64,000 nucleotides of DNA from Escherichia coli. Lineage in GTDB: Bacteria; Pseudomonadota; Gammaproteobacteria; Enterobacterales; Enterobacteriaceae. The notes under the pieces were generated by a model, which made no database searches, was not told where the DNA came from, and saw only the letters and a program-made list of their open reading frames with translations. This document shows positions 37,098 to 54,028 of the stretch, piece after piece (position 1 is the stretch's first letter; each line of letters starts with the position of its first letter). The stretch lies in NCBI RefSeq assembly GCF_002854065.1, contig NZ_CP024147.1. One strand, 5' to 3'. A program made the position numbers and the translations under genes.

Positions 37098-37544
37098 AAA
37101 TGTTCCTCTTCTTATTGTACTTAATTCCAAAGTAATTTTACGAAGAGAAATAAGTGGATGTAAGTGAAGTTAGTCACATAAAGAGATAGCAGATTTAGCT
37201 AAAAAAAGGGAAATAACAGTCCATAAAGCGTTGACATTACTTTCTGTTCTACTAAGTAATTTCTCGCCGATAAACAACTAATCTATTGATATTTAATAAA
37301 TTATTGTATTTTACTGACAAAATGCCGAATTGAGATCATAAATAATCATGCAATAGGTTATGCAAATGCATAAATATGTGATGAATGTCACTTATTTATT
37401 TCAATAAATATATCGCCTAAAAACAACGCGGGGCAAGGAATGGCTGCCCCATTTAATTCTTACGTAGCGTGTGTGGTTGACTACCCGTTAGCAAATAATC
37501 AAATAGCTAAAGCACTCATCGTGTTGTCCGGTAATGACTCCAAC

Positions 37545-38048
37545 TTATTGATAGTGTTTTATGTTCAGATAATGCCCGATGACTTTGTCATGCAGCTCCA
37601 CCGATTTTGAGAACGACAGCGACTTCCGTCCCAGCCGTGCCAGGTGCTGCCTCAGATTCAGGTTATGCCGCTCAATTCGCTGCGTATATCGCTTGCTGAT
37701 TACGTGCAGCTTTCCCTTCAGGCGGGATTCATACAGCGGCCAGCCATCCGTCATCCATATCACCACGTCAAAGGGTGACAGCAGGCTCATAAGACGCCCC
37801 AGCGTCGCCATAGTGCGTTCACCGAATACGTGCGCAACAACCGTCTTCCGGAGCCTGTCATACGCGTAAAACAGCCAGCGCTGGCGCGATTTAGCCCCGA
37901 CGTATCCCCACTGTTCGTCCATTTCCGCGCAGACGATGACGTCACTGCCCGGCTGTATGCGCGAGGTTACCGACTGCGGCCTGAGTTTTTTAAATGGCGG
38001 AAAATCGTGTTGAGGCCAACGCCCATAATGCGGGCGGTTGCCCGGCAT
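37545..38048 (-). CDS. insB: IS1 InsB (transposase C-terminal part)
   Basis: 167-aa [19 protein letters not shown]... typical of IS1 InsB. A6C-type frameshift heptamer (minus strand AAAAAAC, plus 37985..37991) sits at the insA/insB junction. Confidence 0.9.
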
Positions 38049-38242
38049 CCAACGCCATTCATGGCCATATCAATGATTTTCTGGTGCGTACCGGGTTGAG
38101 AAGCGGTGTAAGTGAACTGCAGTTGCCATGTTTTACGGCAGTGAGAGCAGAGATAGCGCTGATGTCCGGCAGTGCTTTTGCCGTTACGCACCACCCCGTC
38201 AGTAGCTGAACAGGAGGGACAGCTGATAGAAACAGAAGCCAC
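37967..38242 (-). CDS. insA: IS1 InsA (transposition repressor / transposase N-terminus)
   Basis: 91-aa [27 protein letters not shown]... with zinc-finger Cys pairs. Confidence 0.9.
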
Positions 38243-38275
38243 TGGAGCACCTCAAAAACACCATCATACACTAAA

Positions 38276-39037
38276 TCAGTAAGTTGGCAGCATCACCGTG
38301 TTGTCCGTGTTCATACCGGTGTGCCTTTGACAACGGTACTCCTTAGAAACTCTCTTCGGACTGTTGCCGAAATGTTTGCGGAACGCATAAATAAAATAAG
38401 ATGTACTGGCATAACCACATTGTTCGGCAATTTTATTGACTGAACCTTCTACGCGTATCAAATTTTTTGCGTGCTGCATTCTGGCATCTAAAAGAATCTG
38501 TGAGAATGTCGTTTGCTCTTGCTTAAGTTTTTTCTTCAACAGGCTTTCACTGATGTACAGGCAGTCACAAATATCTTTCAGCTTCCATGGGTGCGCCAGC
38601 TTCATGTTGACAATATTTCTCACTTTCCCGGAAACGGATAGCACACCGTTAGTTAATAGTGTAATGAAACCTTTGCATGCGGCAAAAATAGACAGGCAAG
38701 AAAAAAGCAAAAGTTCTGAAAAATTATGATGATTGCGTTCTTCCGAGTTGAGATAAGCAATCATTTCATTAAGCAATCCAGTCGGTACATTAGAAGCACG
38801 TAAAAACTTCGCAGGAACAGGCACCGTCACTGTCTGGATGTTAGTGCATTGTAGATATTTTTTAATGGTATTTTCATTAAATCCGATTTCTTTAAAATGC
38901 CGCTCATAAGGTTCAAAATGCGTACGAACAGCGTTATCTACCATCAGGATCTCGCCGTCAGAGAAGGCGTAATCTTTATCTAAAATGTTAGCGTTGAAGG
39001 CATGATGAATAAATATAACAGAACAAACGAGCGACAT
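38276..39037 (-). CDS. ydeO: AraC-family acid-resistance regulator whose last 6 codons are replaced by IS1-encoded sequence
   Basis: 253-aa ORF. Reading frame crosses the right TSD into the IS1 end, ending …HTGMNTDNT-VMLPTY*. Skipping IS1 and one TSD copy, the uninterrupted frame would end …DNT-MSALAI*. Confidence 0.8.
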   Translation of the reverse strand: MSLVCSVIFIHHAFNANILDKDYAFSDGEILMVDNAVRTHFEPYERHFKEIGFNENTIKKYLQCTNIQTVTVPVPAKFLRASNVPTGLLNEMIAYLNSEERNHHNFSELLLFSCLSIFAACKGFITLLTNGVLSVSGKVRNIVNMKLAHPWKLKDICDCLYISESLLKKKLKQEQTTFSQILLDARMQHAKNLIRVEGSVNKIAEQCGYASTSYFIYAFRKHFGNSPKRVSKEYRCQRHTGMNTDNTVMLPTY

Positions 39038-50400: not shown

Positions 50401-52468
50401 GAATATCCGTATCGAAAATGAGCGTACCGCCATTCATGGCCAGTCCACCAATGGATTGCTCTCCCACGTTTACCGATGTGGTATTTTCAATGTCAGACTG
50501 CAACATCGCGTGAGTAAGCGCAGCGGTGTTGTCGCGTTCCAGAGTGAAGGTACTGTCTTTCAGTTGGGCAACACCGGCGAATTCAGTCCCTGTTGCATGT
50601 GTAAAGCCAAACATCTTGTCGGAGGATGACAGCTGAACTCGCATCAAGCCATCGCCTTTGAGCGCATTGGTCAGCGTGTAATCTCCTGCACTGTTCGTTG
50701 ATGCGAGAATGTCGAGCGTACCGGGGCTTGCAATGGTTACTTCACTCGACCCCATGCCCGTTACCCCATCTGCCGTATGAGACGCAATGGTCAGGAGGCC
50801 GTCATTGACCAGCGTTTTACCGCTATAAGTATTCCCTGCATTGAACACCGTATGGCCTGCATCATGGATCACTTTTCCGTCTTTATCGTCACCTGTAATC
50901 AGCATATCGACCTGGTAGCCGGCATCACTGTTATTAGTATGATTAAAGACAAAAACACCTTCGCCAGAGCCAAACTCTACTTTCGTCGCGTTGGTGATAA
51001 ATCCGGCATCTGCCGCCGCCTCACCGTGAGCTGCACCAATGTTTAGCGTTCCTACAGCAGGTTCAAAAACACCTAAGTAAACTTCTCCACCTTCGACATT
51101 CAGCGTGCCGCTATTCGTCAGGGTTAACGTACCCGTACCAGATGTCCCTACGTACATATTGAATGTTTCAAGAAGAGAGTTCTGCCCATCCACCCTCACG
51201 TCGCCCTTGCTTTTGTCATTGAGAGCTATCTGTGTATCACGCGCTTTAACTATACCTCCGGTGGTAATATTCAGTTCACCCGTGCCTAATACACCGACCT
51301 GTAGCAATTGGGCGTTAGTAGATGATGTCTTTAAATTCCAGAGACTATCCGTTGAAATATTAACTATCCCCTTACCGGAGGCATTTCCTCCGATAAATCC
51401 ATAGCCCGTTGAATTAAGGGTGGCACCATTACTGACATTTACGATACCGCTACCAAAATTACCGACATTGATACCCACAGTATCGAACGATGATGTCGCA
51501 TCCATCAGGTTCAGTGTGCCGATACCGCTTGCTTTATCGCCCAAAAAAGTAATATTTTGCGATACAAACTTACCGCCATCGCTAATATTGAGGTTTCCGA
51601 CACCCGCAACACCAATGGTGGTATAGACATTCTTATTGACCTCCCACATCCCCCCCGTGGTGATGCTGACATTCCCGACGCCGGTTTCTCCATAACCGAG
51701 TGAACTTCCTCCGTTGCTGACAACAAGCCCCTCATTACTGATATTCATTTCGCCGTGGCCGTCATAACCAAGATTAGTTCCGAGATTAGTGATAACGGAG
51801 TTCTTATCCTTAACAGTAATGTTGCCTGTGCCTGATTCTTTCATCCCCGCAGTGATAATTCCAGAATCTACTTTACCTTCACGCGAGACATTAAGTTCAC
51901 CGTCACCAGCATCACCGATATAGATATAGCGGAAAGCTTCGCCTGTTCCGAGGAAATTCCAATGCCCTTTATCGGTCACGTTGACGACACCGTGGGAACC
52001 GTCCTGAACGCCCACCAATGAATATTCTTTGTTATTAATTAGTCCATTATTGGAAATATTGACTGCGCCATTACCGAAATATCCATTATAGAGTCTGCGT
52101 ACCGTGATGACAGAGTCTTGATCCTGCACATTCAGGGTTCCGACACCGGTGGCATTGCCACCGATAATCGTATTTTCAGCCGTAACCAGCCCCCCCTCGC
52201 GAATAGTCGCCTCCCCCATCCCTTGATTACCAATTTGAAATTCAATTGCGGAATCATTATTTTTTATTAGCCACTCGCCACCCTTTTCAACGACAACCTT
52301 ACCATTACTGTTCGCTTGATATCCTAAAATGGCGACTATTGAACTCGTAACGTAACCCTTATCCGTAATATTTAATGAGCCCGTACCGTAACTCCCTATT
52401 TCGAATAATTCGGTCGTCAAAACCGAGTCCTCTCCCTCAACATTAACCGTCCCGGTAATGACTCCAAC

Positions 52469-52972
52469 TTATTGATAGTGTTTTATGTTCAGATAATGCC
52501 CGATGACTTTGTCATGCAGCTCCACCGATTTTGAGAACGACAGCGACTTCCGTCCCAGCCGTGCCAGGTGCTGCCTCAGATTCAGGTTATGCCGCTCAAT
52601 TCGCTGCGTATATCGCTTGCTGATTACGTGCAGCTTTCCCTTCAGGCGGGATTCATACAGCGGCCAGCCATCCGTCATCCATATCACCACGTCAAAGGGT
52701 GACAGCAGGCTCATAAGACGCCCCAGCGTCGCCATAGTGCGTTCACCGAATACGTGCGCAACAACCGTCTTCCGGAGCCTGTCATACGCGTAAAACAGCC
52801 AGCGCTGGCGCGATTTAGCCCCGACGTATCCCCACTGTTCGTCCATTTCCGCGCAGACGATGACGTCACTGCCCGGCTGTATGCGCGAGGTTACCGACTG
52901 CGGCCTGAGTTTTTTAAATGGCGGAAAATCGTGTTGAGGCCAACGCCCATAATGCGGGCGGTTGCCCGGCAT
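52469..52972 (-). CDS. insB: IS1 InsB
   Basis: Identical 167-aa ORF to copy 1. Confidence 0.9.
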
Positions 52973-53166
52973 CCAACGCCATTCATGGCCATATCAATGA
53001 TTTTCTGGTGCGTACCGGGTTGAGAAGCGGTGTAAGTGAACTGCAGTTGCCATGTTTTACGGCAGTGAGAGCAGAGATAGCGCTGATGTCCGGCAGTGCT
53101 TTTGCCGTTACGCACCACCCCGTCAGTAGCTGAACAGGAGGGACAGCTGATAGAAACAGAAGCCAC
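52891..53166 (-). CDS. insA: IS1 InsA
   Basis: Identical 91-aa ORF to copy 1. Confidence 0.9.
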
Positions 53167-54028
53167 TGGAGCACCTCAAAAACACCATCATACACTAAAT
53201 CAGTAAGTTGGCAGCATCACCAACCGTCCCGACGCCTGCAGCTTGAGTACCTAATCTTAAATAGCCTCCATCGACGTGACCCTTCTGTTTAATATTCAGC
53301 GTCCCCGTTCCGGATTGACCCACATTTAAAGGCCTTGCATTATTTCCGCTATCATACAATCGCCAGGTGCCACCCAAAACATTAACGGTGCCCTCTGAGT
53401 CCTCATTAGCGCCAATGACGCTGGTAGTAATAGTGGTTAAGGAGGCATTACCGCCAGCCAAAATATTAAGCACTCCAGTGCCATACCAGCCAACCAGGTA
53501 GGCATCATAAGCAACATCAGTATCAATATTTGTAATCTGACCATTATCAACTTCAAGACTTGCACCAGACGCTGAACCGCTTAGTGCCAACAAAACACCC
53601 AGCGTCAATCTACGGAATTTCGTTGTCAGTCCAGAGGATTTACGCAAATTAACCATTGATGTTTTACCTACCCTGCGAGTTAATTCCGAGCAGGCCTGAA
53701 ATACCTGTAGGGTGCAATTCCATATCACGCGATAGATTCTATTCATATAAACGCTCCATATACAAACAATACAGCCTCGAAAGAAATGAGTCGTCAGACA
53801 TTAAAAATGAAACTTATTAAATTGTCAGAGGTCTGTATTGGGGGAACCGCAGAATTCGGAAAAAATCGTACGCTAAGCTAACGGTGTTCTCGTGACAGCT
53901 CTTTGACTAGGCTTTCTAAGGCCATTCTGATAGCCCTGACTTCCTGAAAAGCCATGGCTAAAATTTGTGCGGCTAAAAGGGATAACCGATGGTAAAGTAA
54001 GTTATCCCTGTCGAGATACTGAAAAGCG

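Follow-up and report, generated by a model that had tools for sequence, protein, structure and literature searches.

Two identical IS1 copies, probably from separate recent insertions, bracket dif and hipBA in the terminus region of an Escherichia coli chromosome

Few elements in E. coli are as active as IS1, and direct repeats of insertion sequences commonly give rise to deletions and duplications. In the 64 kb window considered here (the whole stretch of DNA that was analysed), two IS1 copies flank a block of chromosomal DNA, an arrangement that raises two questions: did the block and its flanking elements arrive together as a composite transposon, or did two elements insert independently on either side of it, and what would recombination between the two copies do to the chromosome that carries them?

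Copy 1 occupies positions 37530-38297 and copy 2 positions 52454-53221, both on the minus strand. Each is 768 bp long, and pairwise comparison found 0 mismatches between them, the identity running on for 2 bp leftward and 0 bp rightward. With insA and insB on the minus strand in each, the copies are direct repeats, and the preliminary description was right to call them identical and similarly oriented. They are separated by 14,156 bp of unique DNA, with a start-to-start spacing of 14,924 bp, and the window contains no other IS1 sequence and, besides the pair, no other repeat of at least 150 bp. In both copies insA (37967-38242 and 52891-53166) is followed by an insB' frame (37545-38048 and 52469-52972) in the -1 frame, joined to it by an A6C slippery frameshift motif (37985-37991 and 52909-52915; IS1 position 307), as in an IS1 transposase. 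The insA product is 91 aa long, and the reconstructed 232-aa InsAB' scores 243.8 bits against NF033558, the IS1 family transposase profile (cutoff 100). The terminal 23 bp form imperfect inverted repeats that match at 18/23 positions (GGTAATGAC.../GGTGATGCT...), and the IRL of copy 1 points toward ydeO. Judging from insA, the insB' frame, the A6C motif and the profile score, both copies are intact. The same variant is found elsewhere in the lineage: a copy that lies at ydeQ/ydeR in E. coli CUWW06, and bears the annotation IS1B family there, is identical to it at 769/769 positions.

Exact 9-bp direct repeats surround each copy, GTGTTGTCC at 37521-37529 and 38298-38306 for copy 1 and AACCGTCCC at 52445-52453 and 53222-53230 for copy 2, in agreement with the 8-9 bp target-site duplication of IS1 (PMC5009759). 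As had been claimed beforehand, each element thus has a duplication of its own, and none is common to the outer flanks, where GTGTTGTCC and AACCGTCCC are unalike. The nearest complete genomes are those of E. coli CUWW06 and 100416. Best matches to the whole region are just 98.4% identical, which, with the abundance of IS1 in Shigella, initially pointed to a Shigella origin. This was rejected, since the low value is due to variable fimbrial, prophage and autotransporter segments, and a search with the left flank leads to CUWW06 and 100416 at 99.9-100%. Across the flanks these two genomes show 99.9-100% identity and a collinear gene order. The chromosome belongs to an E. coli lineage that is a very near relative of these two strains, and the window represents its replication-terminus region.

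To reconstruct the empty sites, we removed each IS1 together with one copy of its duplication and sought the resulting 80-mers in the relatives. The 80-mer of site 1 was found exactly in both CUWW06 and 100416, and that of site 2 exactly in CUWW06, so that a single copy of the duplication is present at the empty sites of both kinds. The bracketed block is itself present in both genomes, collinear and 99.9-100% identical, and both lack either IS1. Exact empty sites in close relatives, taken with the separate duplications, therefore argue for two separate simple insertions into a native, collinear chromosome, and they bear out the preliminary description, which had proposed independent insertions and had suggested a comparison with reference genomes to date them; that comparison places both insertions after the split from the CUWW06/100416 lineage, in which the sites are empty. 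We put the probability at roughly 0.85 that the locus reflects two recent, lineage-specific simple IS1 insertions, and not a composite transposon, together with the behaviour expected of such a pair.

Following the split from the CUWW06/100416 lineage, two copies of the resident IS1 variant would thus have inserted separately, one into the last six codons of ydeO and the other about 0.5 kb into an autotransporter gene, each by simple transposition with a 9-bp duplication of its own. The second copy may derive by local hopping from the first or from another copy close by; local hopping of IS1A has yielded 23 insertions within 10 kb against 5.1 expected (PMC5009759). A rough estimate that assumes about 10 IS1-matching places per genome (the median was 11 in a search of RefSeq complete genomes) leads us to expect a same-orientation pair within 15 kb in about 1/8 of genomes by random insertion, and the pair is not beyond chance; the documented local hopping (PMC5009759) would make such pairs more frequent still. 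The pair is ordinary insertion-sequence biology, and the kind of structure is already known.

Could one copy instead have been made from the other by intramolecular replicative transposition, accompanied by local rearrangement? On established transposition models, such an event produces an adjacent deletion or inversion, and leaves no matched direct duplication around each copy. The identity of the copies, their spacing of just 15 kb and the preference of IS1 for inserting near an existing copy (PMC5009759) are all in keeping with this route, but perfect direct duplications surround each copy, and comparison with CUWW06 shows neither inversion nor shortening of the intervening segment; we consider this route improbable. 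A local hop by simple insertion is possible, and would be compatible with the preferred reading of two simple insertions.

Neither insertion was found in any other complete genome: among 5,426 complete RefSeq E. coli genomes, none has IS1 at site 1 or site 2, and within this set both insertion sites are novel. A scan of the species-representative genomes for the exact site-1 junction gave no match either. Junction queries were at least 80% covered, through joined pieces, in 13 genomes at site 1 and 22 at site 2; in all that were checked (three genomes retrieved for site 1 and, for site 2, the spans of the records in the 15 matches listed), IS1 lies elsewhere than at the exact site. We considered whether these 13 and 22 genomes with IS1 nearby mark the sites as IS1 hot spots, and rejected this, the positions being different in all of those examined; by a rough estimate, the numbers are about what random insertion into an interval of 1-2 kb would give over some 5,400 genomes. 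A lone site-1 junction, for which about 78% query coverage would be expected, is absent among the listed RefSeq genomes, the next-best matches reaching 59%, and thus no deletion or tandem recombinant is on record there.

The same structure can be traced in samples outside this set, which bears on the concern that assembly or polishing might have produced the second IS1 or made the pair look perfectly identical. Assemblies often misplace or homogenise repeats of 768 bp, but clean 9-bp duplications occur at both junctions of each copy, and independent data contain the junctions as well. A 14,207 bp Logan contig assembled from short reads of ERR3970133 is 100% identical and terminates 27 bp inside copy 1; its other end falls, by arithmetic, 24 bp inside copy 2. 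A contig of a second assembly, GCA_035821435.1, crosses the site-1 junction and continues 75 bp into copy 1, and the chimeric YdeO protein that copy 1 generates (see below) is on record in both of these independent samples. Exact-protein look-ups returned no record of the 183-aa N-terminal or the 1623-aa (with M at its start) autotransporter products, and so the evidence for site 2 in other samples comes from how long the Logan contig is and where it ends. An artefact is, on this evidence, even harder to credit than replicative transposition.

What, then, lies between the two insertions? The gene content given in the preliminary description is correct, as judged from the annotation of relatives that are 99.9-100% identical and from NCBIfam profiles; all of the genes are on the minus strand. 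Closest to copy 1 is ydeO (38276-39037; NF007407 YdeO, 596 bits over profile positions 1-248 of 253), which has a chimeric 3' end: IS1 supplies VMLPTY in place of the last 6 codons (MSALAI), with the product length unchanged at 253 aa. Copy 1 leaves the AraC-type domain of YdeO untouched, and the gene is probably still functional. Next come safA (39112-39309), annotated at the same coordinates in the RefSeq records of relatives, and ydeP (39557-41836), assigned from NF007406 (1828.7 bits) and the annotation of relatives. These are followed by a decayed fimbrial cluster of the ydeQRST type (42170-45545), recognised from the annotation of relatives and from profiles, which comprises ydeQ (42170-43084), ydeR (43144-43647), a ydeS fragment (43660-43782), an N-terminal usher fragment that matches only profile positions 8-355 of 877 (43786-44874) and a chaperone gene (44916-45545).

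Further along, hipB (47072-47338, 88 aa; NF007271, 184.5 bits, cutoff 79) and hipA (45750-47072, 440 aa; HipA N-terminal domain, Pfam Couple_hipA and HipA_C) overlap, and pair an HTH antitoxin with a HipA kinase in the manner of a hipBA type II toxin-antitoxin system. Both are annotated in relatives, and their RefSeq names are taken from CUWW06, which is 100% identical over 45653-48346 and 99.97% identical over 46346-52454. The block ends with the 3' part of an ECSE_1600-family autotransporter gene (47549-52453, about 4.9 kb), which encodes the passenger and beta-barrel and is severed by copy 2 from its start; the 5' part (53222-53746), with the signal peptide end, lies outside the block. When copy 2 and one duplication are removed, the frame is rejoined to give 1,824 codons, and the CUWW06 annotation gives the gene a length of 5,421 bp. 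The interruption inactivates it.

The most consequential content of the block is nevertheless not a gene. The XerC/XerD chromosome dimer resolution site, dif, was sought within the 64 kb window and found on the minus strand at 45639-45666 as an exact 28/28 match to GGTGCGCATAATGTATATTATGTTAAAT, a sequence that had 0 matches in 100 shuffles. It is 7,341 bp from copy 1 and 6,787 bp from copy 2 and adjoins hipBA, just as dif adjoins hipA in E. coli (PMC5638614). KOPS motifs (GGGNAGGG), whose role is stated in PMC5638614, invert their polarity at this point: all 8 on the plus strand are to the left of dif, at 11237-42762, and all 3 on the minus strand are to its right, one of them within a Tn1722-like element. 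KOPS polarity is clearer here than GC skew, which is dominated by the autotransporter gene and so provides no clean terminus marker over the 64 kb. In CUWW06 and 100416, filamentous prophages are integrated at dif, and the alignments overlap there by 16 bp (45653-45668). The preliminary description had omitted dif, which alters the expected fate of both deletion and duplication products.

The position of dif also speaks to the least probable of the alternatives, in which the 15.7 kb IS1-block-IS1 unit would be a Tn9-like composite transposon, or a resolved or unresolved IS1 cointegrate, from one arrival event: two intact, identical and directly oriented IS1 copies do flank a DNA segment, but no common duplication marks its differing outer ends, each copy having its own, and the segment is native terminus DNA that contains dif at the KOPS switch point and is not missing from the relatives without both IS1, whose empty sites refute a single arrival.

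Having arisen, as we think, by two simple insertions, the pair has been described as a substrate for homologous deletion or duplication, a claim that is sound by the precedent of the CP4-6 pair of K-12 (PMC5009759); in this strain, where the one assembled sequence shows no deletion junction, tandem junction or circle, either event is a potential one. Homologous recombination between the copies would excise a 14.9 kb circle and leave one IS1 behind, and a survivor would be without the dif of the window, the one checked here, and hence presumably Dif-. Known dif mutants show chromosome dimer breakage. About 15% of the cells of dif mutants are abnormal (PMC5638614). Loss of hipAB DNA is reported to lead to growth arrest through HipA (PMC5638614), and in a deletion survivor the pre-made HipA could arrest growth as HipB decays. 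With both dif and hipBA lost, deletion segregants should therefore arise yet be selected against. Unequal sister exchange would yield a tandem duplication, and with it a second dif in direct repeat with the first at the natural dif position, which is where XerCD/FtsK excision between direct dif repeats is most frequent (PMC3140498); amplification should therefore be short-lived and collapse independently of RecA. Built like a Tn9-type composite transposon, the pair might in principle also mobilise the block, though a segment this large would move at low frequency. We infer the cost of losing dif and hipBA, and the Xer-driven collapse of a duplication, by extrapolation from experiments in K-12.

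A more speculative proposal, which we regard as unlikely though worth stating, is that an IS-bracketed block with dif and hipBA is a natural segment that resists both IS-mediated genome reduction and amplification. Deletions would be penalised by unresolved dimers and freed HipA, and duplications would be erased by XerCD/FtsK. If this were true, IS pairs around dif would outlast equivalent pairs elsewhere, and the excised 14.9 kb circle, with IS1, dif and hipBA, would be an Xer-integrating, addictive module that IS1-bearing plasmids could capture. Because dif and hipBA lie between the IS1 repeats, the strain would be a convenient natural test case. It could show whether IS-driven genome reduction spares the terminus core and whether amplification near dif is held in check by Xer recombination, both matters of modest, specialist interest. 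The value of the analysis is otherwise descriptive: two insertions dated to a narrow lineage, their effects on ydeO and the autotransporter gene, and a corrected account of the content of the block.

Several known systems resemble parts of this arrangement. Tn9 transposes as a unit, and the r-determinant of R100/NR1 amplifies and excises by IS1 x IS1 recombination. Like the window block, these segments are flanked by direct IS1 repeats; unlike it, they came in or travel as units and bear resistance genes, whereas the segment described here is native chromosome with a separate duplication for each IS1, and its mobility or amplification is hypothetical. Engineered dif-lacI-dif cassettes are comparable in that a duplication of the block would likewise put two direct dif sites at the natural position (PMC3140498), but the cassette is short and artificial, whereas the hypothetical duplication would space its dif sites 14.9 kb apart. 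There is also a likeness to toxin-antitoxin loci that counter IS-mediated or large deletions, in that hipBA sits inside a deletable block; such systems are described as avoiding deletions on plasmids in the title of PMC6354349, and hipBA may by analogy protect the window block. Another counterpart is the CP4-6 cryptic prophage of K-12, in which two IS1A copies about 11.5 kb apart (at about 278.5-290.5 kb) delete recurrently, accounting for 14/98 IS recombination events in mutation-accumulation lines, and in which the deletion is fixed in strain NCM3722 (PMC5009759). Both pairs are chromosomal, in direct orientation and roughly 11-15 kb apart. However, the K-12 block is dispensable prophage DNA, the loss of which its authors expect to have no fitness effect (PMC5009759), whereas the block described here holds dif and hipBA, and its deletion product is expected to be unfit.

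A repeat search of the 36-55 kb interval returned one long direct repeat, which corresponds to two IS1 elements in the same orientation at 37530-38297 (copy 1) and 52454-53221 (copy 2), each 768 bp long and with 0 mismatches between them on base-by-base comparison. The shared sequence extends past the IS1 ends by 2 bp at the left and 0 bp at the right; copy 1 has GTGTTGTCC at both flanks, and copy 2 has AACCGTCCC. No further IS1 sequence was found in the window by lower-stringency BLAST of the element, and self-comparison of the window revealed no other repeats of at least 150 bp. 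The terminal inverted repeats are imperfect in each copy, agreeing at 18 of 23 positions, and the minus strand of each carries insA (91 codons) and an open insB' frame, along with the A6C slippery motif. A -1 shift joins the insA and insB' frames into a 232-aa protein, for which the NCBIfam model of IS1 family transposases gives 243.8 bits (cutoff 100). Moreover, strain CUWW06, one of the two nearest complete E. coli genomes, holds an identical 769-bp stretch labeled in RefSeq as an IS1B-family element with programmed frameshift. Based upon the frames, the slippery motif, the profile score and this annotated counterpart, both copies look intact and potentially active. Both are ordinary IS1 elements, with every defining feature that we tested present. 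The preliminary description, which had placed identical, same-orientation copies at these coordinates, each with its own target duplication, around a block of 14.2 kb, was correct on all of these points (14,156 bp as measured).

Against E. coli chromosomes, the whole region finds a best match of only ~98% identity and 92% coverage, while the 25 kb to its left are 100.0% identical to CUWW06 (Thailand, wastewater) and 99.9% identical to strain 100416 (Gambia, stool). Reading the annotation of these two genomes together with NCBIfam matches, the gene order is yddA-ydeM-ydeN, copy 1, ydeO-safA-ydeP, ydeQ-ydeR-ydeS'-usher'-chaperone, hipA-hipB, an autotransporter gene broken by copy 2, and lsrK onward. 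Copy 1 lies inside the final six codons of ydeO, replacing MSALAI with VMLPTY in a product that still has 253 residues. Since length is kept and the YdeO model is matched over positions 1-248 of 253, the regulator with its changed end is probably functional. Copy 2 falls within an autotransporter gene of the ECSE_1600 family and divides it in two; the gene is unbroken in CUWW06, and removing the copy in silico regains a single long open frame. Between the start of this gene and lsrK lies a Tn3-family transposon (53840-59479; TnAs1 family in RefSeq), which we take to be Tn1722-like. It has 38-bp terminal inverted repeats, the direct repeat TGTATT at its flanks, and genes for a methyl-accepting-chemotaxis-like protein (54029-55606), a resolvase (55916-56476) and tnpA (56480-59446); it is not in CUWW06, whereas NZ_LR882493.1 has a copy of it, 99.94% identical, in lsrD. 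Elsewhere in the window, a premature stop (Q263*; minus strand, 16254-16256) splits ddpA into two ORFs, position 16256 being A here and G in 100416. The reading frame of lsrA (62796-63602) has just 268 codons; in CUWW06, whose sequence matches 59479-64000 at 100% identity, RefSeq labels lsrA as frameshifted. The ydeQRST-type fimbrial cluster has been hit by two lineage-specific deletions (43783/43784 and 45427-45542): one of ~1.98 kb joined the N-terminus of the usher to a fragment of ydeS, a fusion also found in CUWW06 and in 100416, and the other removed a fimA-like gene and an HTH pseudogene.

Junction queries consisting of IS1 plus flank were run against 5,426 complete RefSeq E. coli genomes, counting a genome when one joined place covered at least 80% of the query. 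By this measure, 13 genomes passed for site 1 and 22 for site 2. All three of the 13 that were fetched have IS1 elsewhere (in two of them it lies in the ydeN-ydeO spacer, and in the third 83 bp deeper within ydeO), and none of the 15 matches listed among the 22 shows the record span expected for IS1 at site 2. The insertion sites are new among the complete RefSeq genomes searched, and the kind of structure is fully known. The same genotype does exist outside the window, as the chimeric YdeO protein is also recorded in GCA_035821435.1 and in the Logan assembly of ERR3970133. The ERR3970133 contig is 14,207 bp long, and the 10,767 bp of it that were fetched match the window at 100% identity. One of its ends lies 27 bp into copy 1 and the other, by arithmetic, 24 bp into copy 2, the pattern left when a short-read assembly is interrupted at each of the two repeats. 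These breaks inside IS1 at both sites argue against the pair being an assembly artefact of the window. Such a pair is no more than chance would give: assuming ~10 IS1 copies per genome and uniform insertion, a rough estimate is that two same-orientation copies lie within 15 kb of each other in about 1 genome in 8. Per genome, the junction query had a median of 11 matching places; most of its length is IS1, and some of these places are matches to the flank. Local hopping of IS1A is also strong: 23 new insertions fell no more than 10 kb from a copy already present, versus 5.1 expected (PMC5009759).

IS1 traffic is common in this neighbourhood. CUWW06 has an identical IS1 between ydeQ and ydeR, 100416 a different one in yddA, and strain 6EVA (NZ_CP138428.1; L005, 20.0-38.3 kb) its own same-orientation pair, in the ydeN-ydeO spacer and ydeS. 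In 6EVA, a filamentous prophage is also present, and a hipA'-lsrK' fusion has removed hipB and the autotransporter gene. The terminus neighbourhood has been rearranged repeatedly across lineages.

The pair could reflect two separate insertions or a single event. We rebuilt the empty sites in silico by deleting IS1 and one duplication copy, and looked for the 80-mers so obtained. Exact matches to the 80-mer of site 1 are present in both CUWW06 and 100416, and CUWW06 also has the exact one for site 2, with flanks collinear and 99.9-100% identical to these relatives; the bracketed block is therefore native chromosome. Each IS1 produced a 9-bp duplication of its own, and comparison with other genomes places both insertions later than the split from CUWW06 and 100416. 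Origin of the pair by intramolecular replicative transposition is argued against by the two clean duplications, as established transposition models have this process leave a deletion or inversion instead. A single composite-transposon or cointegrate event is ruled out by the native block and separate duplications, and the arrangement does not pass as a composite transposon inserted as a unit. Two independent insertions, as originally claimed, best describe the pair.

In CUWW06 and 100416, filamentous prophages are inserted with the fimbrial chaperone gene on one side and hipA on the other, a position that led us to look for dif. An exact match to the canonical dif sequence of 28 bp, GGTGCGCATAATGTATATTATGTTAAAT, occurs once in the window, at 45639-45666 on the minus strand; 100 shuffles gave 0 matches. 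KOPS motifs (GGGNAGGG; 11237-57987) switch polarity at dif, as reported (PMC5638614), and are perfectly split within the 64 kb window: all 8 on the plus strand lie left of dif, and all 3 on the minus strand lie right, one of them within the Tn1722-like element. The IS1 copies bracket dif with near symmetry, 7.3 kb away on one side and 6.8 kb on the other, and also enclose the adjacent hipBA. The preliminary description, whose interpretation is supported, had missed dif, which is an addition to it. In the window, dif is unoccupied; the prophages of CUWW06 (two tandem copies of ~9.6 kb each; L007, 13.7-32.8 kb) and 100416 (L008, from 45.2 kb) sit exactly at dif and encode Zot-like, replication protein II/X and GspD-like proteins.

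We infer that the IS1 pair would be a legitimate substrate for homologous recombination. An IS1xIS1 deletion product would be without dif and would lose hipBA too. Removal of dif raises the fraction of cells losing a terminus marker from <1% to ~15%, via dimer breakage at division, and growth arrest after loss of hipAB DNA has been ascribed to HipA accumulation (PMC5638614). Because of these two losses, deletants should arise yet be selected against, which would fit a proposed role of chromosomal toxin-antitoxin loci in countering large deletions. A tandem duplication, for its part, would place two dif sites in direct repeat at the natural dif position, the location at which XerCD/FtsK most often excises DNA between sites so arranged (PMC3140498); amplification should therefore be short-lived, and its collapse would need no RecA. 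No lone site-1 junction appeared among the genomes listed in the complete RefSeq E. coli search, and thus there is no record of a deletion or tandem recombinant arising naturally. Tn9-like composite movement of the 15.7 kb unit is possible in principle, though unsupported. The dif and hipBA content is the only non-routine angle of the pair, and it makes the strain a possible natural case for asking if the core of the terminus withstands deletion and amplification driven by IS elements. As precedent, the nearest is a pair of IS1A copies in CP4-6 of K-12, ~11.5 kb apart: of 98 IS recombination events in mutation-accumulation lines, 14 took place between them (PMC5009759). Rough scaling from that work would put RecA-dependent deletion and duplication junctions of the present pair at about 1e-6 to 1e-5 per generation, and the duplication junctions would be expected to increase in a xerC mutant. 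The pair described here would work likewise, but unlike in CP4-6, the DNA that it brackets is not dispensable.
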